Shown here: piece by piece, positions 27,813 to 59,410 of the stretch
How the letters are laid out: each line of letters begins with the position of its first letter
Numbering within the stretch: the stretch's first letter is position 1
Translations under genes and position numbers: made by a program
Source of the DNA: a virus
Strand: one strand, 5' to 3'
IMG/VR virus record: IMGVR_UViG_3300043570_002098
Length of the DNA: 64,000 nucleotides
The notes under the pieces: model-generated
What the model was told of the DNA's origin: nothing
Seen by the model: only the letters and a program-made list of their open reading frames with translations
The model's database searches: none

Positions 27813-28151
27813 ATGGAAAATTTGGATCAACCAAAAAGAAGAAAGAAACCTTATAAAGAATTGATTATCAATGGAATTTATAAGGATTGGAAAAGTTTTT
27901 ACGAACCAAACAAAGAAGACATTTATAAATCTATAATTGAAATTTTTGAGGAGTTTAAAAACACAAGAAAAAAATCTTTAGTATTAAAACTTTCAGCTAA
28001 GTTTAAAAACACTGATTGGAATACAGAATTTGAATTTCATCGTAATGAAACCATTGTTTTAAAAAGAGATATTTTACCTTTTTTTGAAGAAAATGAAGAT
28101 TATGAAATGTGTGGTCAAGTATTAAATTTACATAAAGAATTGACTTCTTAA
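27813..28151 (+). CDS. Protein with C-terminal UVR-like motif
   Basis: FFEENEDYEMCGQV. Confidence 0.55.
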   Translation: MENLDQPKRRKKPYKELIINGIYKDWKSFYEPNKEDIYKSIIEIFEEFKNTRKKSLVLKLSAKFKNTDWNTEFEFHRNETIVLKRDILPFFEENEDYEMCGQVLNLHKELTS

Positions 28152-28174: not shown

Positions 28175-28241
28175 GTATCAGGAGAGAGGTACATTTATTT
28201 TTTGTCAAGTCCTCGAGGTTTATACTTCGGGGATTTTTTTT
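28175..28241 (+). ncRNA. Putative antisense sRNA targeting the envelope cluster
   Basis: TTGACT-N17-TATATT (28140-28168); terminator 28210-28241; 27/32 identity to 42641-42672 and partial matches at several minus-strand start regions. Confidence 0.7.
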
Positions 28242-29847
28242 ATAATACCATTCTACTACCTATTTGGAAATTACTTAAAAAATCAGAAAATGGTTTGGTG
28301 TTTCCACTCATTTTGTAGTTTGCGGAGAACCCAAATCTCTTACTAATTTTATAATCAAATGCTGCACCTAATAAAAATCCCATATGTCTATTGACTGTTG
28401 TTACACCCGTTGCACTATTATAACTTATAGGTGCAAACATTGTAAATACCTGTGGTGATATTGTTAATTTTTTATTATACTGATAAGGTTTAGTCCAAAA
28501 CACAATTGCAGATGTAGCCATATTGTATTCAAACCCACCCGTCTCATCGTTTTTAAGTAATAGATTAATTACACCCACATTATAACCATATGTTCCTTTT
28601 TTTGCAGTTGGTTTGATGTATGTATATCCTAATAAATTCATATAGTTTCCACCTAAGTACGCAATTCCAGTTCCGTATGAATGTATTGCGTCTAATTGTC
28701 CATCTTCGGTCATTCCCATTTTTGTTATACCACCCGTCATTACGATTGAACTTAAATTACTATTCACCATCAATCCAGCACTATAACTCACATCACCTGC
28801 TAACGATGATTTACTAAGTCCTAATGATATAGACGCTAAGAAACTACCCGGAGTTGCTTCCATAACACTTATATCCGATGCCAATAGTGTTGGATTTGTT
28901 ACCTCTTGTTTTTTCTTTTTTTCTTCTTCTTTTTTCTTTTCTTCCTCTTTCTTTTTCTCTTCCTCTTTTTTAGCTTCTTCTTTCTTCTCTTCTTCTTTTT
29001 TGGCTTCTTCCTTTTTCTCCTCAGTCTTTTTTTCTTCTGATTTCTTTTCTTCGGTTTTTGCTTCTTCTTTCTTTTCTTCTGTTTTAGCTTCAGTTTTCTT
29101 TTCTTCGGTTTTTTGTTCTGCAGGTTTGTCCGATTTAGTTTCAGCAGGTTTTGCCTCCGCGGGTTTTGCTTCAGCAGGTTTTGCTTCTGTTGATGATGAA
29201 CTACCACCACTTGCAGGAGGTGGAGATGAACTACCACTTGCGGGTGGTGGTGCAGCTGCCGGTGGAGGTGCTGCCGTTGGTGGGGGTGCAGTGACTACGG
29301 GTGGTGGGGGTGGTGGTGCAATGTTTATTGGTGGTGGTGTTGCTGCATTTGCCGCTGCAGAACTTGCTGCCGCACTTGCCGATGAACTTGCTGCCGATGA
29401 TGCCGATGAACTTGCAGCCTTTGCCGCAGCCTCTGCAGCCGCCTTTGCTGCAGCATCTGCGGCAGCTTTTGCGGCGGCGTCCGATGCCGCTTTTGCTGCG
29501 GCATCTGCAGCTGCCTTTGCGGCTGCGTCAGCGGCAGCTCTTGCTGCAGCATCTGCGGCAGCTCTCGCGGCAGCTTCTTGTGCCAATCTTATATTATCAT
29601 TTATAGGACAAGGAGTTGAAAATATTGAATTTACCCATACTTGAAACGCACCACTACTCATGTCAGCTAATGTAACTATTTTAGATTTACCTCTAATAAC
29701 TGCAACCGTTTGATTTTGACCAAAGGGAATTGTTACCACATAGACTTTATTGTCACATGGATCAATATATGTTTGTGTTATAGTACTTTGACTAAACGAC
29801 TTAACATAAAAAAATAATATTAGGAGAGAGATAATATATTTTTTCAT
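28240..29847 (-). CDS. Exported protein with Ala/Pro/Lys-Glu stalk and C-terminal beta-barrel-like domain
   Basis: Signal peptide; (AAAD/AAAK)n, poly-Pro and EEKK repeats; C-terminal alternating beta strands (LGAAFDYKISKRFGFSANY). Confidence 0.7.
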   Translation of the reverse strand: MKKYIISLLILFFYVKSFSQSTITQTYIDPCDNKVYVVTIPFGQNQTVAVIRGKSKIVTLADMSSGAFQVWVNSIFSTPCPINDNIRLAQEAAARAAADAAARAAADAAAKAAADAAAKAASDAAAKAAADAAAKAAAEAAAKAASSSASSAASSSASAAASSAAANAATPPPINIAPPPPPPVVTAPPPTAAPPPAAAPPPASGSSSPPPASGGSSSSTEAKPAEAKPAEAKPAETKSDKPAEQKTEEKKTEAKTEEKKEEAKTEEKKSEEKKTEEKKEEAKKEEEKKEEAKKEEEKKKEEEKKKEEEKKKKQEVTNPTLLASDISVMEATPGSFLASISLGLSKSSLAGDVSYSAGLMVNSNLSSIVMTGGITKMGMTEDGQLDAIHSYGTGIAYLGGNYMNLLGYTYIKPTAKKGTYGYNVGVINLLLKNDETGGFEYNMATSAIVFWTKPYQYNKKLTISPQVFTMFAPISYNSATGVTTVNRHMGFLLGAAFDYKISKRFGFSANYKMSGNTKPFSDFLSNFQIGSRMVL

Positions 29848-29853
29848 TATTCG

Positions 29854-30582
29854 TTATTCAAATTTTTCATTATAATCTTTTATTGTAAATGGACAATATA
29901 CTGAATATCTAATGTCTTTTGATAAGTTTTTAGTTACCTCATGTACGTAATTGTATTTTTGATGTTCAATCAACACACATTTATTAAAATTTGGTAAAAC
30001 TTCTATTTCACCATTTTTAGTATAAAGTTTTAATAATGACCCATCATCAAATTTTCTATCGTTGTTTATAAAAAATACAGCAGTAAATAATCTTTCACCA
30101 TTTGGGTCACTATCAAAATGTTTCTTAATAAATGATCCTTCTGGATATACATTTATATGACCAACTAATGAATCTTTAAAATTTGGTTTAATTTTTTTAT
30201 TAAATAATTCAAATAATATGTTTTCGTAACATTTAGATATTAGATCATAAATTCCATTAGTTTTTAACAAACTACTATTATGTGTTAATAAAAAATTAAA
30301 ATAATCATTTTCATTAAATCCATATTGATCATTTAATTTATTTAAAAAACAATAATCTGTATAATTCAATGAATATGAATCTACTATTTTATTGTATCTT
30401 ATTGGATCTATTTCTTTAACTTTATTTTCCACATCATTTGACCATTGTAAAAACCCTAACGAGCTATTAATCTCATCAACATTTACGTCAAAATTAATTA
30501 ATGATGTATTAAGTTTAACAAACTCATCTTTAGTAAGATAATTTTCTAAATCAAATATTTTATAGTCAAAATCTAAATTCAT
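29854..30582 (-). CDS. 2OG-Fe(II) oxygenase (prolyl-hydroxylase-like)
   Basis: YPEGSFIKKHFD, RLFTAVFFIN, PNFN, HEV, RYS. Confidence 0.8.
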   Translation of the reverse strand: MNLDFDYKIFDLENYLTKDEFVKLNTSLINFDVNVDEINSSLGFLQWSNDVENKVKEIDPIRYNKIVDSYSLNYTDYCFLNKLNDQYGFNENDYFNFLLTHNSSLLKTNGIYDLISKCYENILFELFNKKIKPNFKDSLVGHINVYPEGSFIKKHFDSDPNGERLFTAVFFINNDRKFDDGSLLKLYTKNGEIEVLPNFNKCVLIEHQKYNYVHEVTKNLSKDIRYSVYCPFTIKDYNEKFE

Positions 30583-31427
30583 TATTTGTTATTTAAACCT
30601 ATTGATATTTGTGTGTATCCTCTTATTGGGTCGGTATCTAATTTTAATGTAACGAATTTAAAATCTTTTATAATACCAACTTTAAATGTGGTAAATGATG
30701 AATTTGATTTTGGAAATGAAATACCACCTAAGTCATCTTTACCTTGCCATCTAATAACTTCATTACCAAATCCTACCATACCATGTATTCCTATTTTACC
30801 AATTCTTTTACCACCACCAACATAGAAAGTTGATTCTTTTTTCCAATCTTCTTTACTAAGTGGAAAGTCGACATTGTTAATTTGACCATATGGATAATAG
30901 CTATTTTGGTCTATTGCGTAAGTCATTACATAATCCATAATAAAATATCCTCTCTTGTCACCAATCGTTCCCCAATAAGAAATTTGTTTATTATTTGTAT
31001 GTCCAAATCCAAAGGAGGTATAAACACGTTCTTTTCTAATAGTATCTCTTTTTCCACCTTCATATATATGAATTACACTTCTTTGTCTCCATCCGTAATC
31101 ATCATACCAAATATAAGGCATTGGTTGATACCATCCCCAGTTTCCCCAATAGTAACCAAATTGATTATTTCTATTCCAATTTTGAACACGTACTCTACCA
31201 CGTTGGTCTGGTTGTGATTGTTGAGGTTGATTATTTCTCCAACTACTTACATTATTTTGTTGTGGTACAGATGGTTGAACTCTTGTTTGAGTTGATTGTG
31301 ATGTTTGTGATGATGCTGGAACACTTCCACCAGTTTGTCTCCAAGAACTAACTTGGGAATATAACATTATTGTGCAGAATAATATTAATATTAATATTAA
31401 ACCTGTAACTAATAAAACCTTTTTCAT
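30582..31427 (-). CDS. Exported protein with probable C-terminal outer-membrane beta-barrel
   Basis: Signal peptide, Q/S-rich linker, W/Y-rich segment, then amphipathic beta strands. Confidence 0.6.
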   Translation of the reverse strand: MKKVLLVTGLILILILFCTIMLYSQVSSWRQTGGSVPASSQTSQSTQTRVQPSVPQQNNVSSWRNNQPQQSQPDQRGRVRVQNWNRNNQFGYYWGNWGWYQPMPYIWYDDYGWRQRSVIHIYEGGKRDTIRKERVYTSFGFGHTNNKQISYWGTIGDKRGYFIMDYVMTYAIDQNSYYPYGQINNVDFPLSKEDWKKESTFYVGGGKRIGKIGIHGMVGFGNEVIRWQGKDDLGGISFPKSNSSFTTFKVGIIKDFKFVTLKLDTDPIRGYTQISIGLNNK

Positions 31428-31603
31428 ACTGTTTCAGTTAAAATTGTGGTTAGTAAATAACCGGTTATTATTGGGAATGGTGAAAATATTAAAAAAAAGA
31501 ACAATAACCTCCAAACCAATGGATCAACATTTGTACGGTGACTTAAACCACTACATACACCAAAAAAAACTTTGTCGTCGTGAACTCTTTTAAACTTTTT
31601 CAT
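31424..31603 (-). CDS. pspC: PspC-domain membrane protein (59 aa, absent from the ORF track)
   Basis: MKKFKRVHDDKVFFGVCSGLSHRTNVDPLVWRLLFFFLIF...GYLL matches the PspC pattern; TATTTATA 4 nt upstream; ATGA overlap with next gene. Confidence 0.85.
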   Translation of the reverse strand: MKKFKRVHDDKVFFGVCSGLSHRTNVDPLVWRLLFFFLIFSPFPIITGYLLTTILTETV

Positions 31604-31627
31604 ATAATATAAATATTAAAAAAGGGG

Positions 31628-31861
31628 TTATAAAACCCCTTTTAAACATATTCTATCTAATTCTTCTTGCCTTAAACCTATGGTTGAATCTATTTGTCCT
31701 CCGTCGGATAAAATGTTTACTAAATAAAGACCAAATTTTTTATCACTTATCTCAATTTCTTGCCCATGTATAAACCCCATATCCATCAATTTTAATCTCA
31801 TACATGGTGTACAATTTTCACAAGGATTATTTTGTGGAACGTCCACTACTTCATATTTCAT
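31628..31861 (-). CDS. FeoA-like SH3 domain protein
   Basis: RLKLMDMGFIHGQEIEI...IGLRQEELDRI; N-terminal CxxCxxC. Confidence 0.7.
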   Translation of the reverse strand: MKYEVVDVPQNNPCENCTPCMRLKLMDMGFIHGQEIEISDKKFGLYLVNILSDGGQIDSTIGLRQEELDRICLKGVL

Positions 31862-32589
31862 TATTTCGTGAATATACCTTTTTTAATCATTCTATCAAGG
31901 ATGTTAGCACATGCAATGTCTAAAGCTTTCTTTGTTGCAATACTAATTGTTGATTGATTGAACTTAATTGGGTCAATGGTCGCATCCGATAAAAGGGTTA
32001 ACTCTCTTTTTGTTGTTGCCTCACCTAAACCTGACCCACCAAATACTACACCTGTTTCAGCATCAGTAAATCTAACCTGAAGACCTATACGAGTTACCAT
32101 ATTGTCTTTAATACCGTCTTTTAGGTTAATAGTTTCGTCTTCTGACACCGAGTAGTCATAACACTCAATCGTAACAAAATACTTCGCCAAATTGATTTTA
32201 CCACGACCGTCTAATTTATTCTCAGAAATACCCGCAGCAGACGCTTGGAATTGTTTTACCATCCTATTCTTAATTTCTGTCTTATCCTCGGTAAATTTGA
32301 ATCTATTTAAGTTTTCAAGGTATTCCATTGAAATGTTAGCAACACCCAAACCAACACGTTTTTCTTTTAACTCAGGATACATTTCATACATCTCATCAGA
32401 AATGCCTGCCTTTAATATTTGAATTGGAATTTGAGGACCGTCGTAATCCATGTAAGCACTTATGTCTCGTTTTTTTTCAAAATCTGCTTTATACTGTTCG
32501 GTTTTTGTTGATCCTATTGTTTGTCCCATTGCATTATCTGCAATTAAACAGGTTAAAATAAAAATTAAAAATATTATTAAATGTCTCAT
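31861..32589 (-). CDS. CsgG/TolB_N-fold exported protein (curli-secretion-pore-like)
   Basis: Signal peptide; LENLNRFKFTE, GKINLAKYFV, LQVRFTDAETGVV.GGSG, A.KKAL pattern. Confidence 0.65.
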   Translation of the reverse strand: MRHLIIFLIFILTCLIADNAMGQTIGSTKTEQYKADFEKKRDISAYMDYDGPQIPIQILKAGISDEMYEMYPELKEKRVGLGVANISMEYLENLNRFKFTEDKTEIKNRMVKQFQASAAGISENKLDGRGKINLAKYFVTIECYDYSVSEDETINLKDGIKDNMVTRIGLQVRFTDAETGVVFGGSGLGEATTKRELTLLSDATIDPIKFNQSTISIATKKALDIACANILDRMIKKGIFTK

Positions 32590-32598
32590 AGTTTTATA

Positions 32599-33342
32599 TT
32601 AAGGGTTCCATTTATTTAATGCACTTATGTAGTTACTCGTCATATGATCTTTGGCAGTATTACCTGTGAATACAGCTTTAAGATATTCACCAACTCTTTG
32701 CCAATCAATCATCCATTTTTTAACTTTACCCTCACTATCAATACGTAATTCAGTATTAACGTGGTGATATCCAATATTTGGGGCACGAGTAACAACATCT
32801 AAATTATTAACAATCCTTAATGATTCAATTGATGATTTATCAAAGTTCTGTTTGAATACTTTATTACCAACTCTTGGACTACCGATAGTACAACATATAA
32901 TTTTATTTGATTTATAAATTGAATAAATCTCATATGCACATAAGGTAGAAACTGCAGCTCCCAAACTGTGACCGCAAACAATAATATTATCAACTTCACC
33001 CTCCCCACCTAATGTGGATAATGCTTTTTCAAATGATTTATAAGTTTCGTCTTTAACAGCGTCCCAAGATGATTTAAATCCAATGTGAACTTTTTCACCA
33101 TCTTGAACAAATGGAACTTTATCAATTGATGCGTCGTTTTGGAAATCCTTTTTAGAAGAACTTCCTCTCCAAACGATATAGATAGATTTATCCTTTGTGG
33201 CAACAAATCCTTGTGTATCTGTTTTTTTATCGTCAATCCATTTAATTAATTTTAATCTTTGTGCTTTAAAATCAATGTCTTTTTGTTCTGAATATACTTT
33301 CTCGGTTAAACCGACATTGTATAGTATTTCGTTTTTTGTCAT
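32599..33342 (-). CDS. Class 3 lipase
   Basis: VWRGS, VHIGF, GHSLGAA, GSPRVGN, DVV..P, H motifs. Confidence 0.92.
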   Translation of the reverse strand: MTKNEILYNVGLTEKVYSEQKDIDFKAQRLKLIKWIDDKKTDTQGFVATKDKSIYIVWRGSSSKKDFQNDASIDKVPFVQDGEKVHIGFKSSWDAVKDETYKSFEKALSTLGGEGEVDNIIVCGHSLGAAVSTLCAYEIYSIYKSNKIICCTIGSPRVGNKVFKQNFDKSSIESLRIVNNLDVVTRAPNIGYHHVNTELRIDSEGKVKKWMIDWQRVGEYLKAVFTGNTAKDHMTSNYISALNKWNP

Positions 33343-33366
33343 TGTGTATTTGTTTTTGTTATAATA

Positions 33367-33603
33367 TTACTGTCTTGCTGGCCATATACCACGAGTGGCT
33401 ATTATGTATTTCATACCATCCATAGGTGGTTCCATTTTAGGTACCGCAAATAAATTTGGTGTTGCTCCGTATCTATCTTGCAGTAATACATATAACGCCT
33501 CATTTTCCCTTATGTTTAATAATTGTCCGTTGCATTCTACATATCCTTGAGGAGCGTAGCCTCCTGCAAATAATTTAATTGCCCCAATTAATTCTTCTTC
33601 CAT
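33367..33603 (-). CDS. Stand-alone tail-collar-domain protein
   Basis: IGAIKLFAGGYAPQGYVECNGQLL...LY.LL..RYG. Confidence 0.8.
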   Translation of the reverse strand: MEEELIGAIKLFAGGYAPQGYVECNGQLLNIRENEALYVLLQDRYGATPNLFAVPKMEPPMDGMKYIIATRGIWPARQ

Positions 33604-33606
33604 AGT

Positions 33607-34680
33607 TTATTGTGTTTTTGTTTTAGATTGATCACCCTTCTTTAAAAATATATCAAATATTGTTTTAGGACTGTATTCTACAAGTAATATTAAACCCTTC
33701 CTCAACGTAGAGTTTTTTACAACGTGATTTAAAATATCTTTAATAACCTCTTTAATGGCGAAATTTTTAGTGTCAAAATATGTTCCATCAAAATATCTTG
33801 GACTTGTTCCCTCACCACCTGGTGAACCGTGATGAGCACCTATAGAGGTACGCCAATAATCAGCATGATTTTGCCATTCAGGAACTGAAACCAATTCAGG
33901 TGAATCAAAAAATAAATTCCACGATAATACATTACCCTTTTGTAACATATTACCAGTACCTAAGTTAAAAAGATTTAAAAAGTATTGATTAAACTTATCT
34001 AATTTGTGATCACTTGTTGTTACCATTCCTCCTATTTCTACATTGATATGTCCTGTACTATATGCTTCTTCCTTTATTGCAAATTCAGGATTTTTAAATC
34101 TTGGTGATAAACCCTTTCCGAGTTGAAATATAGGTTCTTTAGGATTTCCTGGTAGATGTGTTAAAACACGAATAGCATTTTCTTTGTTGATAGGATACTT
34201 ACGAGAACTGTATTTTAATAATGGCCAAATTGCTCTTAATAGACCACCTTGATTTTCACCTGGTGTTAACCAAATTTTTCCCTCAACCATCATATCCGCA
34301 GCAATTTCCTTTGTGTCTTCATTAACCCATCCTCTTTGTCCCGTAACTGTTACTTCCACATTGATACAAATCTCATCTCCAATCCACATCCCTTGTTGAG
34401 GACAGATTATGGAATAAATTCTACCTTCATTGGTATATCCTATTCTTGAAATATAAGGAGCAAATTGTACATAACAACGTTTTGGGTCTTTTTCCCCATT
34501 TAGGGTATTCCAACTAAACATTGGCCATTTAACACCCCATTGTCTTTGTAGTAAATTAATGTTATCCATATTACCCAACATAGGTAATGAGGTTAAATCT
34601 GTGGTAGGATATAGCATTTTCTTTTGTTTTTCAGATGGAAAACCACCTTGCCATCCCGTAGGAATTTGTTCGTTTGTCAT
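33607..34680 (-). CDS. Hypothetical protein
   Basis: 357 aa ORF after TATTTATA (34691-34698). Confidence 0.7.
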   Translation of the reverse strand: MTNEQIPTGWQGGFPSEKQKKMLYPTTDLTSLPMLGNMDNINLLQRQWGVKWPMFSWNTLNGEKDPKRCYVQFAPYISRIGYTNEGRIYSIICPQQGMWIGDEICINVEVTVTGQRGWVNEDTKEIAADMMVEGKIWLTPGENQGGLLRAIWPLLKYSSRKYPINKENAIRVLTHLPGNPKEPIFQLGKGLSPRFKNPEFAIKEEAYSTGHINVEIGGMVTTSDHKLDKFNQYFLNLFNLGTGNMLQKGNVLSWNLFFDSPELVSVPEWQNHADYWRTSIGAHHGSPGGEGTSPRYFDGTYFDTKNFAIKEVIKDILNHVVKNSTLRKGLILLVEYSPKTIFDIFLKKGDQSKTKTQ

Positions 34681-34731
34681 ATTCTTTTAATATAAATACA
34701 CAAAAAAGGGAGTTTTTAACTCCCTTTTATA

Positions 34732-34980
34732 CTAACCTTCTGTTTCTTCTTTCTTTTTGTGAGAGAATTTATCCAAAGTATCTGCACCCATTCCAATTCC
34801 CGTGATTAACATCACCGCATTCACCAATTCAGGTGATGGAGCGAAATCCGCGTGAGAGAACGAATTTAAAATCATCGTAATACATAGGAATAAAGCACCT
34901 ATCATTGCTATTACCGGCTTTACCGATATTGATCCTCTTTCATCTTTGAAAATTTCAATAACCCATTGTTTAAAATTCAT
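34732..34980 (-). CDS. Small 2-TM membrane protein (holin-like)
   Basis: Two hydrophobic helices, charged C-terminus. Confidence 0.55.
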   Translation of the reverse strand: MNFKQWVIEIFKDERGSISVKPVIAMIGALFLCITMILNSFSHADFAPSPELVNAVMLITGIGMGADTLDKFSHKKKEETEG

Positions 34981-35009
34981 AGTTTTTTATTTTTTGTCTT
35001 TTGTTTATT

Positions 35010-35678
35010 TTATCCTTCCGTATGCATTTCTGCATTTTCATCTTTAATTTTACCACATTTTAAACACTCCTCAATGCCATCACCATCCAAGTCACCCCAA
35101 ACGTGTTCACATTGTCTATGTGCGAAATACATATCTATTTTACCGTCACCATCAAAATCAATACCATCTATTGTACCATCACCATCTTCATCAACCTCAA
35201 CACCTGTTCTTGGTTGTGATTTGAAAGGACTTTCAACAACTTGAGGATTATTTGGTTCTGATTTTACCTCTACTTTGTTTGCCTCAATTAAGTTGATTTC
35301 ATGTGCGTTCTTTGCGGCTTGCACAAATGCATCTGGAATCAATGGAGTGTTATTTGGTGGAGTTACAGGCATATCAGCAGTATTACTCATTGACGTACCA
35401 TCTTCTTCGTCCATTTTCTGAACTAACATCTTATCCTTATCAGTATCACTAAACCAATAGTCAATGATTTTACCATAACTACCGATAAACGCTCCTAATA
35501 ATAATAAAAGAAGTTCTTTCCATTCTCCTTCAATCGTAGATTTATTTAATATACCAAAGAACATTCCTCCAATAATAATCATAAATCCACCTAACACTAT
35601 CGCAGTGATATACCACCTGCGTTTCATCATATTTGCTAATAAATCCTTAAATCCGCTTGGCGGTTGTTCATTACTCAT
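35010..35678 (-). CDS. 2-TM membrane protein with DxDGDG Ca-binding repeats
   Basis: Two TMs, IIDYWF, DEDGDG/DFDGDG/DLDGDG and CEH..CLKC. Confidence 0.7.
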   Translation of the reverse strand: MSNEQPPSGFKDLLANMMKRRWYITAIVLGGFMIIIGGMFFGILNKSTIEGEWKELLLLLLGAFIGSYGKIIDYWFSDTDKDKMLVQKMDEEDGTSMSNTADMPVTPPNNTPLIPDAFVQAAKNAHEINLIEANKVEVKSEPNNPQVVESPFKSQPRTGVEVDEDGDGTIDGIDFDGDGKIDMYFAHRQCEHVWGDLDGDGIEECLKCGKIKDENAEMHTEG

Positions 35679-35695
35679 CTTTTTTTAATTTAAAA

Positions 35696-36010
35696 TTACC
35701 ATTTAGGTGCTTCTTCTTTAAACTCATCACCTTCTTTTTTCTTAGGTTTTGGTGCTGGCGCCGGTTTAGCACTACCGTCTCCACCTTTATTGATGATTAC
35801 AGTTTTACCACCACCCGATTGTTGAGTTTGTGAATTGGTAATGTTGATTACAGGTGCCGCTTGTTGAACGGGAGCCTCTTTTTCGTCACCACCTGTTAAT
35901 TTTGTTGTAAACCAACCACCCACACCTAATGTGATGGTGCTTACTAAACCGATAATGATGTTCTTAATTGAACCACCTGTACTTTCTGATTTTTCTTGTT
36001 CTTCTGCCAT
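35696..36010 (-). CDS. Single-TM protein
   Basis: One TM followed by low-complexity tail. Confidence 0.65.
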   Translation of the reverse strand: MAEEQEKSESTGGSIKNIIIGLVSTITLGVGGWFTTKLTGGDEKEAPVQQAAPVINITNSQTQQSGGGKTVIINKGGDGSAKPAPAPKPKKKEGDEFKEEAPKW

Positions 36011-36042
36011 AATTTTGTGTTTTTTGTCTTTATATAATTATC

Positions 36043-36411
36043 TTAAATTTTATTAAAATCTGTAATTCCTAACATATTACCCGCAACATCGTATAATGCA
36101 ATCCTATACGCTGAAGATGGTAAAGCGGATGTATACACCCTTAAAATGTTATCACCAACCTTAACCTCACTTGTTGATTTTGATACCACTCTATTGGAAA
36201 TATCAAAAATCTTAACGGTTACAGTTTGAGCAACATCACTTTTTATGTTCATTGCAACTTCATTTGTTATAAATGAAGTTTCTAATTTTAATCCCACTGA
36301 ACTTGAGATTTTAAGGTTGTCACTAATCACTTGTGGTTGCATTGGTATGTCTACTTTTCTACATCCAACAAGTAAGATTAATCCAAAGAGTACGAGAGAT
36401 ACTTTTTTCAT
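36043..36411 (-). CDS. Lipoprotein consisting of a T9SS C-terminal-domain-like fold
   Basis: Lipobox LVGC-RK; VTVKIFDISNRVV...SALPSSAYRIAL resembles a type A CTD. Confidence 0.6.
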   Translation of the reverse strand: MKKVSLVLFGLILLVGCRKVDIPMQPQVISDNLKISSSVGLKLETSFITNEVAMNIKSDVAQTVTVKIFDISNRVVSKSTSEVKVGDNILRVYTSALPSSAYRIALYDVAGNMLGITDFNKI

Positions 36412-36423
36412 TTTTTGTCTTGT

Positions 36424-36777
36424 TTAATTTATAATTATTCTTGTTTTACCTATTTGATTATTATTTTGATCCTTTAACACGACACTTAGGTTTTTTGTCG
36501 GTAAAGTATTAGTAAATATTTTAAGAGAGTTTAATCCTACTTTACCAGTAAACCTTTCCCTTGATACTACTTGGTTTTGAACCGTATCAATCATTGTTAA
36601 AGTATATACTCCTCCTGTAGTTAAATTAATATTAATAACATCCCCGTTTTTTACCTTATTTTCAGATAAGGAGAAAAATTCCACATTTGTCGGTGACACA
36701 GGTGTAAACGGAACCATTTTTTTGCACGATATTATAAAAACCATACAACACAATAATATAATTTTGATACGTTTCAT
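36424..36777 (-). CDS. Lipoprotein, paralogous CTD-like Ig fold
   Basis: Lipobox IISC-KK; YTLTMID..NQVV...NTLPTKNLSVVL. Confidence 0.55.
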   Translation of the reverse strand: MKRIKIILLCCMVFIISCKKMVPFTPVSPTNVEFFSLSENKVKNGDVININLTTGGVYTLTMIDTVQNQVVSRERFTGKVGLNSLKIFTNTLPTKNLSVVLKDQNNNQIGKTRIIIN

Positions 36778-36780
36778 ATT

Positions 36781-37674
36781 TTAAAATTGAAAGTTTGTTC
36801 CTATCATAAATAGAATTGGATTACTCTTTTTATACCCAACCGATTCACTTAATTTATTCCAAGTTGTGTTATATCTAACATTAGTATTCAATACAAATTT
36901 TTTAGTTATTTTCCAATCAATAGATGTACCATAATATAAGTCCAAATTGAAATCATCTACATATGCTAAATCCGATTCAGTCCCATCTTTGAATACTTTG
37001 TAGATATCACTCATTGCAAATATTTGTGGTGAGATGTTTACTCTCTTTGTTTTGAATGTATACGTATACATTGCCATACCTCTATAACTAATTTGACTTG
37101 ATGATGGCATTTGTGGATATATTAAATCTTTAAAATCACCATTTTCATCTACTATATATTTTCCTTCCCATTGACCTTGATAACTTCCCCAAAACGATTT
37201 TGACGCAATCACACTATAACCAAATGTTCCAAACTTTTTAGTTCTGAATACATCAATGAATGATAGAGAAATATCTTTTTGAAAATCAAAATCGGTTGAA
37301 TAGAATGATTGTAATGTAGTAGTTCTTGTATTCGTATTTCTACTGAAACCATAACCCACACCATAGTAGTTCCATATTGGATTTATTGATGATGCGAATG
37401 AGTGACCCCATTTACCATTTTTAGATGATTTACTATATCCTAAATTTAAGGTAGTAGATACTTGTTTTCCAATTACACCTACTGATAAATTTGAGGATGA
37501 AAGAACATCTTTTGAAAAATCAATATATGACTCTAATATACCTAAATTATTCCAATCACCACTTTCTCCAAATAATTCTTTTGGTGATAGTTGTAAGGTA
37601 TCTGGTTTTACAATTTGTGCGTTTGTAACAAATGTTGTCAAAATTAGTGACAGAATTAATAATAGTTTTTTCAT
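36781..37674 (-). CDS. Outer-membrane beta-barrel protein
   Basis: Signal peptide; alternating beta strands; terminal IGTNFQF BAM-type signal. Confidence 0.7.
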   Translation of the reverse strand: MKKLLLILSLILTTFVTNAQIVKPDTLQLSPKELFGESGDWNNLGILESYIDFSKDVLSSSNLSVGVIGKQVSTTLNLGYSKSSKNGKWGHSFASSINPIWNYYGVGYGFSRNTNTRTTTLQSFYSTDFDFQKDISLSFIDVFRTKKFGTFGYSVIASKSFWGSYQGQWEGKYIVDENGDFKDLIYPQMPSSSQISYRGMAMYTYTFKTKRVNISPQIFAMSDIYKVFKDGTESDLAYVDDFNLDLYYGTSIDWKITKKFVLNTNVRYNTTWNKLSESVGYKKSNPILFMIGTNFQF

Positions 37675-40283
37675 TAATTTATTTTTATTTTTAATGATTT
37701 TCCATCTTTATTAACTGCGTCCGTTGAACCTATTGAAATTAAACCCAATATGTTATCCAATTTTGTGTTTGACGAAAATGAAATCTTATATGTTGTTGTC
37801 TTATCTAAACTTGTACTACCATCACTTACCAAAGAACCTAAATTAATGTAATTACCCTTGTTGGTTGCATAGTTGGTAGGTGAACCTTTTGTGGTAAATT
37901 GTATTCCTTTAAAATTTAAGACCGAATTATCGTAGTTTAATTGAAATTGAGTTCCTACCACGTTTTGTTGTAATGGGTCAAATGTGATGTAAGCATAAAC
38001 ACTATCACCAATTACTTCGGTCATAATAGATGCGTTGATGTCAGTTGATATTGGTGTACTCATTGATGTTCTAACTGTCATCGTTGTGATATTATTTGAT
38101 GGAGGAGTTGCCGAATGTGATAAGTTTACATCACCTTTCCAACTAACAGCCAAATCGTAGTTATAACTTATTACATTATCTAATAAACTAAAATTATAAG
38201 TTTTTCCTGCAAAATTTTGAAAAGAACTCCAAGTTGACTTACCAATTTTATTATAAATTGAATCAGGTATCAAACGTATTGTATTATCCAAAGTATAATT
38301 ACTAACTAAGTTTTGTACACCCGTTAAATTTTGTAATAATTTGAAACAATCCGCTTCATTAAATAAACCATCATCATTTACATCTGCGTTTTTATATTGA
38401 ATTCCGTAAGTAAACTCATTACCACTTTGATTTCCAAATATACCACCATTTGCCAATTCCTTAAATGCCAAATACACATCTGATACTGTTACGATACTAT
38501 TATACAAAGTTTTTAATTGTGTACTATCATATTCTTGTAATTCCATTTTGTGTTGTTTGAACGCACCTTGTTGGGTAAGTCCAATACCACATGCAAATGC
38601 ATAGTCGGTATTTGAACCATTCATATTTCTAATATATTGATTATATGCAGAAGTTCCATCGGTTACTTTTGTTAATGGAGATGGAACAGTATATTGTGCC
38701 CAACCATTATTGTCATGTGATGTATATGTAACAGGCCCATCATACGCATCTAATATTTTTACATTTGATATTTTCGTTGGGTCTATACTTCCAACTTGTC
38801 TCATATCAATTAACAATCTACTATTACCATTTAACCAACTTGCATTTGGATTTGTATAAGACCACTCTACCCCACCCGGAGATATAGTTGCTTTGTATGA
38901 TGCAGGTGCCGATACGAATTGGTAACTTAATCCCCATCCACCATAACCCGATGTTGATACTCCATTACGAGTTGAACCAACATATTCACTTAACCCCTGT
39001 ACTACTTTAATATAAACTTCTTTTGTTTGTCCGTCTGATATTACACCAGCATGTACCGCTGCGGCTGGAATATATGAATCACTTGTATAGATATCGGTTC
39101 CCCATATTGCTCCACCTGTTGTACCTGTTATTGTTATTCTATATATCTTACCAATATCCGATTCATTAAATTGTTGCATATCGGATGTTCCTGCTGTTAA
39201 TGGAATACCAGTTGTATAAATCTTTGAAGTATCTATTTGATTTGAAAGAAATACTTTACCCAAACCACTCAATGATTTATAACCATCCGCCGCTGCCCAA
39301 TTTGAATATGTGTCGTTTCTTTTGAATATCTGTGCTAAGAATTTTGTTTTATCTATTGAAGTATTAAACTTAAATCCAAATAATGCTTTTATAGTTTCTC
39401 CGTTTGAATGTGTTACTGAATTGGTATAGAACTCCGTAAATGTTGCATCATCGGGATTAGACCAAGTTCCATATTCAATTACATATGGGTTACTCCAATT
39501 GTTTGATAAGTCATTCCATTGATTACCATTCCATTTTGTTACTGCATAATCCTCACTATGATTATATCCGTTTGGTTCACCATTTGCCCAATTATTATAC
39601 ACACCTGGTCGGTTTCCGGCAGTTGGTCCGTTGGATGTTTTCATCACAGTCCCCTTTTCAGGACCCGCATCAATTACCCAAGTTCCATCTATAACTTCAT
39701 CTGTTGCTGCAAACCATATATTTGATTGTGGTACATTAGCTTGAATAAATAAATCTTCCGATGATGATGTTAGTGTTAATAGATAACCCGTCTGTCCTTT
39801 GAATGTTGTTGTTAACGCAATTGCTCTTGCGTTTGTATAAGTTGTACCGGTTGTTACGGGTTTGTAAAAGTGACCATTTACTCCATTGAAATAATATCCT
39901 GGTTGATTAACAGTTGCGGCCACTGAAATATTAATATCACCAATTACTGTTCCTGTGTTTATTTTTAGAGACGCTAACGCAGTATTAATACTTGCCATTG
40001 TTCCAGTTACCACTAAACGAGTTTTATTACCACTTAAAGTAAATCCACTTGCTGCCGTTAAACCCGTTGTTGTGTTTAATACGAATGTTGTACCTGATGG
40101 TGGATTGACTAAACTTATAGAAGCAAGTAAAGTAGATGTTGCACCAAATCCACTTAATGAAAATCCACTAGCGTCTTGTCCTGTGGTATTCACAGTAAAT
40201 GATTTAGGGTCTGGAGCCGTTACTGACTGACCAAACCCTAAAAATGATATAAATAAAAATAATACTATTAATAGTTTCTTCAT
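37674..40283 (-). CDS. Exported multidomain adhesin: C-type lectin + LCCL + dockerin-like + cohesin-like
   Basis: YNNWANGEPN...EDY...WNDL (CTL); IWGTDIYTSDS..AAAVHAG...STRNGV (LCCL); DVNDDGLFNEAD (dockerin/EF loop); GTQFQLNYDNSVLNF (cohesin-like). Confidence 0.75.
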   Translation of the reverse strand: MKKLLIVLFLFISFLGFGQSVTAPDPKSFTVNTTGQDASGFSLSGFGATSTLLASISLVNPPSGTTFVLNTTTGLTAASGFTLSGNKTRLVVTGTMASINTALASLKINTGTVIGDINISVAATVNQPGYYFNGVNGHFYKPVTTGTTYTNARAIALTTTFKGQTGYLLTLTSSSEDLFIQANVPQSNIWFAATDEVIDGTWVIDAGPEKGTVMKTSNGPTAGNRPGVYNNWANGEPNGYNHSEDYAVTKWNGNQWNDLSNNWSNPYVIEYGTWSNPDDATFTEFYTNSVTHSNGETIKALFGFKFNTSIDKTKFLAQIFKRNDTYSNWAAADGYKSLSGLGKVFLSNQIDTSKIYTTGIPLTAGTSDMQQFNESDIGKIYRITITGTTGGAIWGTDIYTSDSYIPAAAVHAGVISDGQTKEVYIKVVQGLSEYVGSTRNGVSTSGYGGWGLSYQFVSAPASYKATISPGGVEWSYTNPNASWLNGNSRLLIDMRQVGSIDPTKISNVKILDAYDGPVTYTSHDNNGWAQYTVPSPLTKVTDGTSAYNQYIRNMNGSNTDYAFACGIGLTQQGAFKQHKMELQEYDSTQLKTLYNSIVTVSDVYLAFKELANGGIFGNQSGNEFTYGIQYKNADVNDDGLFNEADCFKLLQNLTGVQNLVSNYTLDNTIRLIPDSIYNKIGKSTWSSFQNFAGKTYNFSLLDNVISYNYDLAVSWKGDVNLSHSATPPSNNITTMTVRTSMSTPISTDINASIMTEVIGDSVYAYITFDPLQQNVVGTQFQLNYDNSVLNFKGIQFTTKGSPTNYATNKGNYINLGSLVSDGSTSLDKTTTYKISFSSNTKLDNILGLISIGSTDAVNKDGKSLKIKIN

Positions 40284-40286
40284 AAA

Positions 40287-41939
40287 TTATTCAACAATCA
40301 AATTAATCTTGTTTCCGTTTCCATCAACCGCGTCAGCTAAAACTGTATAAAATAAACCCGCCGTATTTGTTATGGTTTCTTTCGGTATAAAAGTTAATTT
40401 GTAAGGTGTCCCTATTTTAATTCTACCAGTTTTCATTTGATCCATTGAACCGAATGTTAATCTACCATCTCCATTTGTTGAGAAGTTAGTTACGTTTGGA
40501 CCGGCGTCAAATGATATATTATCAAATGTTAATTTTGAATTGTCATATTGTAAGATTACCTCTAATCCCGCTAATCCGTCTTTTGTTAATGTTCCCGTTA
40601 ATACAACTTTACCATTAACAATTGTAGAGTTTAATCCTAATGTTGCCTTTTCAATTGTTGGTGTATATGACATTGATTGAACTGAAAATGATTTGATTGA
40701 TGAGGTACTTTTTTCATTAATTGAGTTTAAATAAGTTCCTGCCGCAATTCTACTTGCGATTACATCAGGGTCAGATGAATGAGACCAATCCAAATCACCA
40801 CCCCATGCGTATACCATATCTACCGATTGATTTGATGATGTTACTTTTGTTTTGTAAGTAGGTACACCATCTAACCAACTTTGATTTAATAAACCACTAT
40901 ACCATTTGAATAAACCACTATTTGTACTCAATGGAATCCATGCACTATCTTTTACATTAGCGATACCCATTACATATGCAAACATATAATATGAATCACT
41001 TTCACTAAACACACTTTTACTCTTTGTAATTTGACCTATATTCTTTTGTAATTGTGGTCTTGTAAAATAAGTTTTTACACCCGCGATATCCGTTTGTGAA
41101 ATACCTAAAAATGCTTTATATGCGTCTGATACTGTTATAATGTTATTCATAAAAGTTTTTCCTGTTGCACCATACATCCACACCGCCAAACTATCTCCCA
41201 CTTTCACTTCTGTTGTAAATGTCGCCTCACCACTTGCATCTAATACTTTTGTTGCAATTGGTGTTACTGTAAAATCAATTGTACCATCTGTTTTTATTGG
41301 AAATAATGCAACACTGTGTGCGGTAATATCATATCCTGTTGGGAATAAAACTCTTAGTTTGAACTGAGACGTATTACCAACAACATTTGTTAAAGACATT
41401 GTACCTGGATCAGTTGTAATTGGTGTAATGTATGCACTTGTTGCATCAATTGAATATGATAAGTCTAATTTATGAATGTCGGTATACGCACCCAAATCTT
41501 TGATTACATATTTTTGAGTTGCAACATCTCCGTTGATAGATGCATCGGTTCTTTGAACAGTTAATTGACCAACATTCCAATCTGCGTTGGCTGCGTAACC
41601 CCATGGAGATATTAGATATTGTGCATATAAATCTTTAGCTGTAATACTATTTGCTGCACTTGAAGTAAATTTATAAGACGACCAACCTGTGTAGAATGTT
41701 TGAACTGATGTTCCTTGTGAGAACGTCGTTGAAACATATGAAAGTGCCTTATTGTTAAATTGATATCTCAACCAAAAATAACGAGGCGTGGTTGTACCTC
41801 TCGCAACCGTGTATTTAACTGAAACCGTATCACCAACCTTTAACCCTGTTGTAGGTGTCACAGATTGGTTGACAGTTAATTGTGCATTTGTTGCTATGGA
41901 TATTACTAGTATTCCAAGTAGCGTTAATAGTTTTTTCAT
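40287..41939 (-). CDS. Exported protein with degenerate dockerin-like and cohesin-like modules
   Basis: Signal peptide; ITVSDAYKAF, WGGDLDWSHS and GLEVILQYDNSKLTF parallel the C-terminal half of 37674..40283. Confidence 0.65.
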   Translation of the reverse strand: MKKLLTLLGILVISIATNAQLTVNQSVTPTTGLKVGDTVSVKYTVARGTTTPRYFWLRYQFNNKALSYVSTTFSQGTSVQTFYTGWSSYKFTSSAANSITAKDLYAQYLISPWGYAANADWNVGQLTVQRTDASINGDVATQKYVIKDLGAYTDIHKLDLSYSIDATSAYITPITTDPGTMSLTNVVGNTSQFKLRVLFPTGYDITAHSVALFPIKTDGTIDFTVTPIATKVLDASGEATFTTEVKVGDSLAVWMYGATGKTFMNNIITVSDAYKAFLGISQTDIAGVKTYFTRPQLQKNIGQITKSKSVFSESDSYYMFAYVMGIANVKDSAWIPLSTNSGLFKWYSGLLNQSWLDGVPTYKTKVTSSNQSVDMVYAWGGDLDWSHSSDPDVIASRIAAGTYLNSINEKSTSSIKSFSVQSMSYTPTIEKATLGLNSTIVNGKVVLTGTLTKDGLAGLEVILQYDNSKLTFDNISFDAGPNVTNFSTNGDGRLTFGSMDQMKTGRIKIGTPYKLTFIPKETITNTAGLFYTVLADAVDGNGNKINLIVE

Positions 41940-41941
41940 AG

Positions 41942-42589
41942 TTATTTAACAAATAATTTAGTTATTAATTTATCCGCCGATTTTTTTAAGGCGTTACTAA
42001 GTGACGTTTGATTAAATTGACCTCCCTCATCAACAATTAATGTTGACATTGATATTTCTGAAGATGATTCTTCGACCATTATTTCCTTTTCTTTTTTACC
42101 ATCCTTATATAAAGTTCCTTTCATACGAATGACAACTTCTTCTTCATTTTTGTGAAAAACAGAAATGTTCTTTTTTGTTGTAAGAACATCTAAATAAATG
42201 ATTTGAACTTTTAATTTGTATGGGGCTGAAGGTGTTAAATCATAACCCTTTTCTTGTAAGAATTCTTCCAATGTATTTTTTACACCGAAAGCTAAATTTC
42301 TATTACCTGCCAATTTACCCATCTTAACTTCATTGGTAACACTCTCCACCCAAATATGGTCTTCAGCCACATAGAATATATTTTCAGGTGAGTTCTTGAA
42401 TGTACCATCAATCCTCCACGAAATCCAATTTGAGATGTCTCTTGTTATTTCTCTTTGGCCTGAAAATTCCAAAACCGCCATGGATATACCGAATATCATT
42501 CCAAATATTACCCATGATATCGCAAAGTATAAAAAACCTAAAAAGATTTTTTCTTTAATATTAATTGATAGTGTTCTTAATTTTTCCAT
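41942..42589 (-). CDS. Membrane-anchored periplasmic protein (possible CsgG/LptE-like alpha/beta fold)
   Basis: N-terminal TM; LAFGVKNTLEEFL and FNQTSLSNALKK echo 31861..32589. Confidence 0.5.
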   Translation of the reverse strand: MEKLRTLSINIKEKIFLGFLYFAISWVIFGMIFGISMAVLEFSGQREITRDISNWISWRIDGTFKNSPENIFYVAEDHIWVESVTNEVKMGKLAGNRNLAFGVKNTLEEFLQEKGYDLTPSAPYKLKVQIIYLDVLTTKKNISVFHKNEEEVVIRMKGTLYKDGKKEKEIMVEESSSEISMSTLIVDEGGQFNQTSLSNALKKSADKLITKLFVK

Positions 42590-42684
42590 ACTGTTCTGAG
42601 TTTACAATTCCCTCAGAACCACATATTAATATAATACATAATATCTTGAGAGAGATACGTTTATTTTTTGTCTGTCTATAAATA
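42590..42684 (-). promoter_or_regulatory. Envelope-cluster leader: TATTTATA promoter, sRNA site, uORF and hairpin
   Basis: Motif 42677-42684; sRNA-complementary site 42641-42672; uORF MYYINMWF* 42639-42613; hairpin gttctgag/ctcagaac 42593-42619 next to the ATG. Confidence 0.55.
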
Positions 42685-43705: not shown

Positions 43706-43778
43706 GCCTCGTTAGCTCAGTTGGTAGAGCAAGTCATTTGTAATGATTAGGTCTGCGGTTCAAGTCCGTAACGAGGCT
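43706..43778 (+). tRNA. tRNA-Thr(UGU)
   Basis: Cloverleaf; anticodon loop TTTGTAA; GTTCAAGTC; CCA not encoded. Confidence 0.92.
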
Positions 43779-43780
43779 CA

Positions 43781-43963
43781 ACAGGTGACGACGGTGGTGT
43801 GACCCCACTGTCTATGAATCTCAACTATCCGTTTGAATCTAGATGTAGAACGGTGAGAGTAGAGTTACTATAAGTTGGAGTAATTAACCATTAAGCGAAA
43901 AGTAACCTCCGATTCATGAATCAGTCTCGGACATGATGTACATAGATGGTACGAAAAACCTGT
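43781..43963 (+). ncRNA. Structured inter-tRNA RNA element A
   Basis: acaggt/acctgt closing helix; actgtctatg/catagatggt 10 bp; ccgtt/aacgg; GGAGTAATTAACCA. Confidence 0.55.
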
Positions 43964-44904: not shown

Positions 44905-44942
44905 CATTTTGTTTATTGGAATATTTTTTGTATATTATCATC

Positions 44943-59409: not shown

Positions 59410-59410
59410 A

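Follow-up and report, generated by a model that had tools for sequence, protein, structure and literature searches.

A conserved module of exported envelope proteins around a CsgG-fold protein in a freshwater jumbo T4-like phage

The IMG/VR virus record IMGVR_UViG_3300043570_002098 raises the question of why a phage would carry a long block of genes whose products are mostly exported, and what those products would do in the infected cell. The stretch of this record that was analyzed, referred to here as the window, is 64,000 nucleotides long. Between positions 28240 and 42589, it carries 18 co-oriented open reading frames (ORFs) on the minus strand: 17 of at least 75 amino acids (aa), numbered from g01 (41942-42589) to g17 (28240-29847), and a 59-aa ORF for a PspC protein that came from reading the gap between g14 and g15 (31427-31603). 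The reading that we favor, with moderate confidence, is that the block is a conserved phage module whose exported products form an envelope-anchored scaffold that holds lectin and cohesin proteins, thereby altering what the envelope of the infected cell binds. The genes on which this reading turns are the following.

g01, 41942..42589, minus strand: 215 aa, N-terminal anchor and truncated g13-paralogue domain (periplasmic); core gene
g02, 40287..41939, minus strand: 550 aa, secreted, signal MKKLL...NAQ; C-terminal ~290 aa paralogous to g03
g03, 37674..40283, minus strand: 869 aa, secreted; C-type lectin, LCCL, dockerin-like Ca loop and C-terminal cohesin-like domain
g04, 36781..37674, minus strand: 297 aa, stand-alone 12-stranded outer-membrane beta-barrel, signal peptide, ends ..NFQF
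g05, 36424..36777, minus strand: 117 aa, lipoprotein, lipobox FIISC, beta-sandwich-like, paralogue of g06
g06, 36043..36411, minus strand: 122 aa, lipoprotein, lipobox LLVGC, beta-sandwich-like
g07, 35696..36010, minus strand: 104 aa, inner-membrane anchor (transmembrane segment, TM, 18-36) and Pro/Ala/Lys-rich periplasmic tail ending in Trp; core gene
g08, 35010..35678, minus strand: 222 aa, membrane protein (TM 26-44), tandem DxDxDG Ca-binding-type loops, Cys-rich C-terminus; core gene
g09, 34732..34980, minus strand: 82 aa, two hydrophobic segments, charged C-terminus
g13, 31861..32589, minus strand: 242 aa, exported CsgG-fold protein, the most conserved gene of the block
g15, 30582..31427, minus strand: 281 aa, secreted (signal ..LYSQ), Q/N/S-rich and then W/Y/G-rich region, beta-rich C-terminus; semi-core
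g17, 28240..29847, minus strand: 535 aa, signal, ~70-aa head with two Cys, 220-aa Ala/Pro/Lys-Glu stalk and C-terminal 12-stranded barrel; core gene

A first-pass annotation of this DNA had described about 18 co-oriented, mostly exported genes, and the count bears this out. When one hydropathy rule was applied to the whole window, an N-terminal signal or anchor was found in 12 of the 18 block ORFs and in none of the 40 other ORFs (Fisher p = 2e-8), with g07 falling just below the cut-off. Signal peptides are present in g02, g03, g04, g13, g15 and g17, and lipoboxes in g05 and g06. Membrane segments, N-terminal or internal, occur in g01, g07, g08, g09 and the PspC ORF; g10, g11, g12, g14 and g16 have no signal. 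The clustering of exported proteins is real and far beyond chance. The cleavage sites are of the Bacteroidota style (..AQ/..GQ), and the genes are without Shine-Dalgarno sequences. A search of PHROGs returned no match for 15 of the 17 large block proteins, nor for 10 large ORFs flanking the block.

Evidence that the block is a unit came from its distribution. Conservation was counted over 83 related loci, 80 of the 503 IMG/VR contigs with a g13 relative having been retrieved as loci. Gene order is kept as g01, g02, g03, (g04), g05, g06, g07, g08, (g09), a variable slot, g13, (g14, PspC, g15) and g17. The block is flanked on one side by a divergent PhyH gene, and on the other by a convergent 112-aa ORF (27813-28151), a cREC gene and an RNA ligase gene. 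The identity of g13 across the 83 loci is 83-98%, whereas that of g02 is 22-96%, that of g05 36-99% and that of the lectin proteins 22-97%. In three long genomes, g13 is 86-93% identical, compared with 79-85% for the capsid protein. A conserved core combined with variable glycan-binding proteins is the pattern of a fixed machine with host-specific binders.

Compact versions of the module support this picture. The cultured Flavobacterium phage vB_FspM_immuto (immuto) has a module at gp013-gp019, located directly after the replication genes on the same strand, that encodes a C-type lectin protein, a hypothetical protein, a cohesin protein, a g07-like protein, a g13-like protein, a 474-aa protein and a g01-like protein. 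The g13-like protein (gp017) is 55% identical to its counterpart, compared with 39% for the capsid protein, and the 474-aa protein (gp018) has the head motif of g17 and ends in Phe. The homologues of g13, g17 and g01 are annotated as “hypothetical” in the immuto record, and a literature search found no paper describing CsgG-like genes in Flavobacterium phages. The short metagenomic contigs L085 and L092 carry a four-gene unit that consists of a g07-like gene, a CsgG-fold gene, a gene for a head-plus-barrel protein (329 aa) and a g01-like gene (170 aa); the compact module of contig L088 adds a lectin protein. In these modules, the Ca loop is on the lectin protein (clear in L088, more degenerate in immuto gp013) and the immuto cohesin is on a separate protein (gp015), an arrangement seen in cohesin-dockerin systems that counts in favor of a scaffold. 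Thus, the genes co-occur in many phage genomes, including that of a cultured Flavobacterium phage. Directly upstream of the immuto module is gp012 (L090:5157-5735), an endonuclease G/NUC1-type enzyme; because it has a signal peptide, it is predicted to be a secreted or periplasmic phage nuclease.

The phage origin of the block, also part of the original description, is well supported. The window lies in a 91.5-kb IMG/VR virus record with a completeness estimate of 27%, and contains a T4-type major capsid protein gene (Pfam Gp23, E 9e-73) together with genes for the portal (Portal_T4), large terminase and prohead protease. The cultured phages nearest in capsid protein are Microcystis phage Mel-JY01 and immuto, both at 38-39% identity. 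Given the T4-type genes, the size of complete or near-complete IMG/VR relatives (324-336 kb) and the freshwater metagenomes from which the long relatives come, the window is a fragment of a freshwater jumbo T4-like phage. We infer a Bacteroidota host of the Flavobacterium type because of the cultured relative immuto, the ..AQ/..GQ signal ends, the missing Shine-Dalgarno sequences and the DUF3244/Por_Secre_tail matches described below. A megablast search of the block against GenBank phages gave no match, and envelope or secretion modules are not mentioned in the moraphage paper (PMC12619734). A scan of genome contigs also found L094 and L095, short contigs with g13 relatives of 83-84% identity that are binned in metagenome-assembled genomes of Thiobacillus and Micavibrio (GTDB species genomes); we take both to be mis-binned phage fragments that carry no host information.

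The homology of g13 to CsgG is visible only through the Pfam matches of its family members, hhalign and fold searches. The g13 sequence alone has no Pfam match, single-sequence phmmer searches of PDB sequences found nothing for g13, g01 or g02, and the g13 family profile had no match among PDB sequences. Among 34 aligned family members, however, 20 match Pfam CsgG (best E 1.9e-17) and 7 match LpoB, and an hhalign comparison of the g13 family (A1) with E. coli CsgG gave 93.5% with E 2.2e-7 over 229 columns. The AlphaFold2 (AF2) model of g13 has a predicted local distance difference test score (pLDDT) of 80.5. CsgG is its best match, both in Foldseek (E 2.6e-7) and in the VIA comparison (Z 12.2, root-mean-square deviation (rmsd) 3.4-3.7 A, 174-194 residues aligned), where it ranks ahead of Cj1090c, PelC, LptE and all other families; membrane-bound forms of CsgG score Z 11.8-12.2 over 189-194 aligned residues. 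These data provide strong evidence for the CsgG-like protein that had been proposed. A set of 5.8 billion proteins contains 5,668 g13 relatives, the best 120 of which are all at least 83% identical, and clustering the relatives at 50% leaves 214 representatives. In longer cellular relatives of the g13 subfamily, the domain is fused to a caspase (Peptidase_C14; three cases) or forms the C-terminal/outer domain of a Ser/Thr kinase (P0218, P0231, P0234, P0260). One cellular locus, L086:7675-12051, combines a CHAT/caspase gene, two CsgG-fold lipoprotein genes and a gene for a 419-aa product that has a signal peptide, a C-terminal ..LLRF and no Pfam match, and that reads as outer-membrane protein (OMP)-like; this locus may represent an undescribed cellular envelope system.

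The distant CsgG look-alike noted earlier, g01, is also upheld. Its TM segment spans residues 15-40, its match to Pfam Lipoprotein_16 (E 2.2e-5) is slightly under the cut-off, and its family (A3) aligns with the g13 family (A1) in hhalign at 95.4% (E 1.8e-8). The homologues immuto gp019 and the L085 170-aa protein both have cleavable signals. In L002-L004, L019, L043 and other loci, an ORF of 68-77 aa just upstream of the g13 homologue encodes a small membrane protein homologous to g01 residues 1-75, and the g01 homologue in loci with this separate ORF is ~180 aa. Set beside these loci, the window's g01 resembles two genes, carried apart by the relatives, that have been joined into one.

Three beta-barrels had been proposed, and two of them stand. 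The AF2 model of g04 (pLDDT 70.6) matches PcoB, NanC, FapF and EspP in Foldseek (E 1e-7 to 1e-6), and the VIA comparison gives Z 20.7 for NalP, 20.3 for KdgM (rmsd 1.4 A) and 19.8 for FapF, with VhGalP and NanC also among the best. Homologues of g04 occur in 45 of the 83 loci and are 73-96% identical. A jackhmmer search from g04 recruits residues 315-516 of g17 (E 6e-63), and homology thus confirms the g17 C-terminus as a predicted barrel of the g04 family. The C-terminal residue is Phe in g04 and in 41/41 homologues, but Leu in g17 and in 80/80 homologues; a beta-signal is typically aromatic-ended. Among those 80 homologues, the stalk of g17 is 77-231 aa long and rich in S/A/E/K, and the head motif Y.DPC is common to immuto gp018 and the L085 329-aa protein. 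A tblastn search of phages with g17 gave no match. The third candidate, g15, is present in 54 loci at 37-92% identity. Its nearest named clusters in a language-model atlas are OMP_b-brl and OMP_b-brl_2 (0.88), and its family profile (A5) found nothing in the PDB; a small OMP barrel is only a lead here.

The large secreted proteins g02 and g03, which are similar in their C-terminal parts (E 1e-10 to 3e-14), had been described as two exported cohesin/dockerin-like proteins. The cohesin part of this claim holds at the family level: Pfam Cohesin is found in 28 of the 39 members of the g02/g03 family A4 (best E 2.2e-8), and the A4 profile matches the ScaB cohesin 4ums (E 1.5e-4). In g03 itself, Cohesin (PF00963) scores 21.5 bits over the full length and 24.6 bits when the C-terminal part is taken by itself, with a cut-off of 24.1. 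The dockerin part is weak. It consists in g03 of a single DVNxDG..D loop, DVNDDGLFNEAD, at 634, and Pfam Dockerin_1 is found in only 3 of the 39 A4 members (best E 0.0045). A motif search found one dockerin loop in g03 and one in the L088 lectin protein, and none in g02 or in immuto gp013, the latter having by eye a DVNNDS loop with Ser at the Gly position. The glycan-binding part of g03 is clearer, as both the C-type lectin domain (Lectin_C, PF00059; 24.0 bits, cut-off 22.6) and LCCL (52.6 bits) lie above the Pfam cut-offs, and the lectin motifs EPN at 236 and WND at 256 are kept in immuto gp013 and the L088 lectin. The claimed CsgG, barrel, cohesin and lectin folds are real. A pairing of PorP/SprF with a type-B C-terminal domain (CTD) cargo protein was considered for g03/g04 and rejected, as it has no Pfam support.

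The two short proteins g05 and g06 resemble each other (E 1e-10) and are lipoproteins, as originally described, with a lipobox in 37/37 homologues. Their likeness to a secretion CTD is below threshold. Within the family, 12/37 members match DUF3244 and 5/37 match Por_Secre_tail (PF18962; best E 0.0014), all under the Pfam cut-offs, and g06 itself gives sub-threshold matches to DUF3244 (E 6e-4) and Por_Secre_tail (E 0.019). Rather than forming the tail of a cargo protein, the CTD-like domain accounts for the entire mature lipoprotein. Lipoproteins of Bacteroidota are exported to the surface by a K-D/E-D/E signal after the lipobox Cys, as described in the Capnocytophaga literature. In 15 of the 37 g05/g06 homologues (alignment A6), at least two acidic residues directly follow the lipobox Cys, often as x-K-D-D, and this stretch resembles the surface-export signal; it is absent from the window's own g05 and g06.

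Among the small membrane proteins, g07 homologues are present in 71/83 loci and lie directly upstream of the CsgG-fold gene in the compact modules of L085, L088 and immuto (gp016). The claim of Ca-binding membrane proteins applies to g08 only, where the motif DEDGDGTIDGIDFDGDGKID at 163 was seen by eye and by pattern; g08 is found in 73/83 loci and has no family match in Pfam or PHROG. In 40 loci, g09 is 87-100% identical, with no Pfam or PHROG match, and by topology only it would be class-II-holin-like.

Assembling these observed export signals, folds, paralogies, shared gene order and conservation into a mechanism leads to the following model. The products would be exported via the host Sec pathway into the periplasm and outer membrane of the infected Flavobacterium-type cell. 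The invariant core would have four parts (g07, g13, g01 and g17), with g04 as a free paralogue of the g17 barrel. Around this core would lie the secreted glycan-binding proteins g02 and g03, with their dockerin-like loop and cohesin-like domain, the lipoproteins g05/g06 and the membrane proteins g08/g09. The barrels would be inserted by the host beta-barrel assembly machinery (BAM), g13 and g01 would oligomerize or dock at the periplasmic face of the barrels, and g07 would act as the tether between the complex and the inner membrane. Pairing of the cohesin-dockerin type would keep the lectin and cohesin proteins on the scaffold, and the outcome would be changed binding by the envelope, whether by the surface or by the periplasm, of the infected cell. 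Our first guess at the role is that glycan receptors are masked, so that superinfection is excluded and fewer progeny are lost to cell debris; adhesion comes second. A lectin-tipped surface structure, as the first-pass annotation envisaged, is possible. More speculatively, and on balance improbably, the module could be a phage-built envelope organelle in which a CsgG-fold assembly without a pore, together with stalked barrels of the autotransporter kind, anchors cohesin/dockerin scaffolds with lectin tips at the surface. If true, the virus would encode a system for surface display that lacks a cellular counterpart and is under a constraint stronger than that on the capsid protein.

Several points weigh against the scaffold. 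The contacts between the parts, their surface exposure and their biological role are steps that we infer. The dockerin-like element is one loop and not the canonical duplicated segment expected for PF00404, and the lectin proteins have no recognized outer-membrane export signal (no CTD of the type IX secretion system, T9SS) and may stay periplasmic. Predicted structures cover g13 and g04 only. Exclusion genes tend to be few in number and to evolve fast, which does not fit a 13-gene module whose core varies less than the capsid protein. A promoter look-up (T4 late, TATAAATA; Bacteroidota -7, TAnnTTTG) found none upstream of any block gene, and so does not inform timing.

The alternatives differ mainly in what they make of g13 and the barrels. 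The model of the first-pass annotation, that g13 is a CsgG-like oligomeric outer-membrane pore (type VIII-like) exporting the lectin/cohesin proteins to build a lectin-tipped structure, is attractive because CsgG, including its membrane-bound forms, is the best structural match, because the AF2 model contains one long hairpin of 19+18 residues (pLDDT 72-88), because pelagimyophages and phage Melnitz carry CsgG/CsgF operons (PMC7029224; PMC9004378), and because lectin proteins need some route across the outer membrane. Nevertheless, we consider it unlikely. At the lipobox site, where the wider g13 family has the consensus L-x-G-C, the aligned residues in g13, its close relatives and immuto gp017 are ..AMGQ, ..IIAQ, ..LFGQ or ..ASAQ, without Cys; g13 has a type-I signal ending in ..AMGQ, and in the present phage clade is probably periplasmic and non-lipidated. 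The hairpin equivalent to what we take to be TM1 of E. coli CsgG is 5 residues shorter, with a charged tip, acidic in part (SEDET..KDGIKD), in g13 and all aligned subfamily members, and the region equivalent to the presumed TM2 is of low confidence (pLDDT 56-74). Members of the subfamily are fused to periplasmic caspases or a kinase, and none of the 18 block proteins has a Pfam match to CsgE, CsgF or curlin at E <= 0.1. Moreover, folded, disulfide-bonded lectins would be too large for the CsgG channel of ~12.9 A (1.3 nm; PMC9004378). Given the lack of a lipid anchor, the short charged hairpin and the caspase-fused relatives, a CsgG-type secretion pore is an improbable role for g13. A lysis or egress device, in which a spanin-like link between the inner membrane (g07, g08, g09) and the outer membrane (g17, g04, g05, g06) breaks the outer membrane late, is distinctly unlikely. 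In its favor are the i-spanin-like topology of g07 (N-terminal TM and periplasmic tail), the small outer-membrane lipoproteins g05 and g06 and the holin-like topology of g09; no canonical spanin or holin family was found in the window (PHROG), and a role in lysis timing has been proposed for the CsgG of phage Melnitz (PMC9004378). The fit is one of topology only: an i-spanin has a coiled-coil periplasmic domain, and the tail of g07 is Pro/Ala/Gly-rich. Lysis genes are normally poorly conserved, whereas g13 and g04 vary less than the capsid protein does. With the immuto endolysin as probe, the window yielded no endolysin; immuto's own lies 8 kb from its module, which follows the replication genes on the same strand, and known lysis systems offer no role for lectin, LCCL and cohesin domains.

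Other explanations dispense with a scaffold altogether. The core could bind a conserved envelope machine of host or phage, such as gliding/T9SS, BAM, Lpt, cell-wall synthases or the injection apparatus of superinfecting relatives, the last being the target of T4 Spackle and Imm. The extreme conservation of g13 would suit a conserved partner, its fold family includes LpoB, LptE, PelC and FlgT, which bind envelope machines, and in its cellular relatives the domain serves caspases and kinases as a periplasmic module; this explanation identifies no partner and leaves the co-conserved barrels, stalk, and lectin and cohesin proteins unaccounted for, and we find it quite improbable. Still more doubtful is capture or uptake of glycans, with g04 and g17 as sugar channels of the KdgM/NanC type and lectins concentrating glycans that feed a long jumbo-phage infection. 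KdgM, NanC and VhGalP are among the best barrel matches, the lectin has an EPN sugar-binding motif, and such a role has been suggested for phage CsgG (PMC7029224). Yet autotransporter and FapF barrels match equally well, so that the match speaks for the fold only; the block has no glycoside hydrolase or inner-membrane sugar transporter, and the stalked head of g17 is left unexplained. The least credible alternative is that these are ordinary virion parts (fibers or baseplate decorations) whose hydrophobic N-termini are not export signals. While the block does lie between structural gene blocks, g11 has a tail-collar domain and lectin-like domains do occur on phage fibers, homologues retain the canonical signal peptides and lipoboxes, the folds are those of outer-membrane barrels and CsgG, PHROG structural matches are absent and g11 occurs in only 3 related loci. 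These data agree with the first-pass annotation in pointing to exported envelope proteins; the folds are related to those it named, signals are present, and the genes occur together in other genomes.

The remaining genes of the block are carried by few relatives.

g10, 33607..34680, minus strand: 357 aa, no signal; accessory, 9 loci
g11, 33367..33603, minus strand: 78 aa, phage tail-collar (Pfam Collar, E 6.3e-14), no signal; accessory, 3 loci
g12, 32599..33342, minus strand: 247 aa, class-3 lipase with GHSLG (Pfam Lipase_3, E 2.6e-27; PHROG esterase/lipase), no signal; accessory, 14 loci
g14, 31628..31861, minus strand: 77 aa, FeoA-like (25.0 bits, cut-off 23, E 2e-5), no signal; accessory, 20 loci
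PspC ORF, 31427..31603, minus strand: 59 aa, Pfam PspC (PF04024; E 9.1e-15, 54.6 bits, cut-off 25); accessory, 17/83 loci
g16, 29854..30582, minus strand: 242 aa, 2-oxoglutarate (2OG)-Fe(II) oxygenase (2OG-FeII_Oxy_3, E 4.6e-9), no signal; accessory, 7 loci

The PspC, FeoA-like and lipase genes that had been reported are thus present, the FeoA-like match being above the curated cut-off. Because each of g10, g11, g12, g14, g16 and the PspC ORF is found in only 3-20 of the 83 loci, they are accessory passengers in variable slots. Their absence from most relatives speaks against their inclusion in one machine with the rest, and the presence of PspC in so few loci likewise does not support the suggestion that it counters secretin stress. 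The stop codon of the PspC ORF overlaps the start codon of g15.

Comparison with known systems places the module among several partial parallels. The nearest of these is in pelagimyophage HTVC008M and Methylophilales phage Melnitz, which carry a partial curli operon (CsgG, CsgF and curlin-like proteins) that is absent from their hosts and whose function is not known (PMC7029224; PMC9004378). Like the phage studied here, these are aquatic T4-like myophages with an operon of exported proteins around a CsgG-family protein, next to 2OG/PhyH oxygenases, and the HTVC008M CsgG is covered over its entire length by the g13 family profile. The CsgG proteins of pelagimyophages and Melnitz are canonical, being 37-40% identical to E. 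coli CsgG (40% in the pelagimyophage), with a lipobox and with CsgF and curlin-like neighbors. In contrast, a tblastn search with E. coli CsgG does not recover g13, which lacks a lipobox and a CsgF partner, and the present module has 12-stranded barrels, lectin/cohesin proteins and lipoproteins instead. With CsgG of E. coli, the curli (type VIII) channel, g13 shares its fold and detectable homology; it differs in that it is not lipid-anchored in this clade, that its TM1-equivalent hairpin is shorter and charged, and that CsgE, CsgF and CsgA/B are missing. In PelC-PelB and LptE-LptD, a protein with a fold related to that of g13/g01 (PelC Z 10.0, LptE Z 8.6) is genetically linked to a barrel, as g13 is to g17 and as is seen at the cellular locus L086 and with the DUF3187 neighbor of P0151. 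The barrels of the block are nevertheless 12-stranded and too small for a plug, and no polysaccharide or lipopolysaccharide transport genes are present in the block.

The type Va autotransporters NalP and EspP, and FapF, match g04 at Z 19-21, and the domain order of g17 (signal, N-terminal domain, linker, C-terminal barrel) and its barrel size fit a type Va autotransporter. However, g17 has no Pfam Autotransporter match at E <= 0.1, KdgM-type porins match equally well, and the Cys pair in the head is 48 residues apart; a disulfide spanning so widely would hinder autotransport. Cellulosome scaffoldins share the cohesin-like domain and, in the compact modules, the separation of dockerin-type loop and cohesin. 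The present system differs in its single loop, where a dockerin has a duplicated segment, in its lack of enzymes and in being from a Bacteroidota phage, and cohesin-dockerin pairing is putative here. T4 Imm and Sp, T5 Llp and lambda-type Cor are phage proteins exported to the host envelope for superinfection exclusion, each system comprising one or two small genes. The present module is also exported to the host envelope, but has at least 13 genes with an elaborate, highly conserved core.

Repeats and hairpins mark the edges and the interior of the block.

25-nt direct repeat, upstream copy, 42648..42672, minus strand: in the g01 leader
25-nt direct repeat, downstream copy, 28182..28206, minus strand: just beyond the g17 stop codon
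Hairpin, 42593-42619, minus strand: 8-bp perfect stem just before the g01 ATG
Hairpin and T-run, 31617-31640, minus strand: after the g14 stop codon

The two 25-nt copies bracket the block and are identical at 23/25 positions; the window has exactly 2 matches, with 0 expected. Allowing up to 4 mismatches, 19 related loci have one copy and 6 have two. A plus-strand transcript across the downstream copy would be antisense to the g01 leader.

The surroundings of the block contain further gene sets. Five tRNA genes (Thr, Asn, Met, Ser, Glu) and a phage transfer-messenger RNA (tmRNA) were found with ARAGORN at window positions 43706-44905 and 49341-49737; in phage Melnitz, a phage tmRNA adjoins the CsgG operon (PMC9004378). 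Glycan-synthesis genes at 58321-63910 and 48352-49032 encode UDP-galactopyranose mutase, glycosyltransferases (GTs) of types GT11, GT25, GT1-like and GT2, and a GlcNAc-transferase (PF11397). These genes might act on sugars of the host surface, and a link to the module's lectins is conceivable. At 22337-27745, a gene for a ClpB-like double AAA+ chaperone is accompanied by what looks like an RNA repair set, with genes for an AAA_33 kinase-like protein, a T4 Rnl1-type RNA ligase and a cREC_REC domain protein; the arrangement is kept beside the module in relatives, which also have HSP20.

When phages carry genes for exported proteins of the host envelope, these are mostly single “morons”. In the very abundant freshwater clade studied here (503 IMG/VR contigs, >5,600 protein relatives), an entire envelope module of many proteins is a core trait, and one of its components varies less than the capsid protein. 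Until now, the reports of CsgG operons in phages had come only from those of SAR11 and OM43; the module extends them to phages of Bacteroidota and points to a non-pore use of the CsgG fold. The compact version in the cultured phage immuto makes function, localization and lectin ligand testable at the bench, and the function of the module bears on superinfection, the loss of particles to debris, aggregation and the flow of carbon in lakes.

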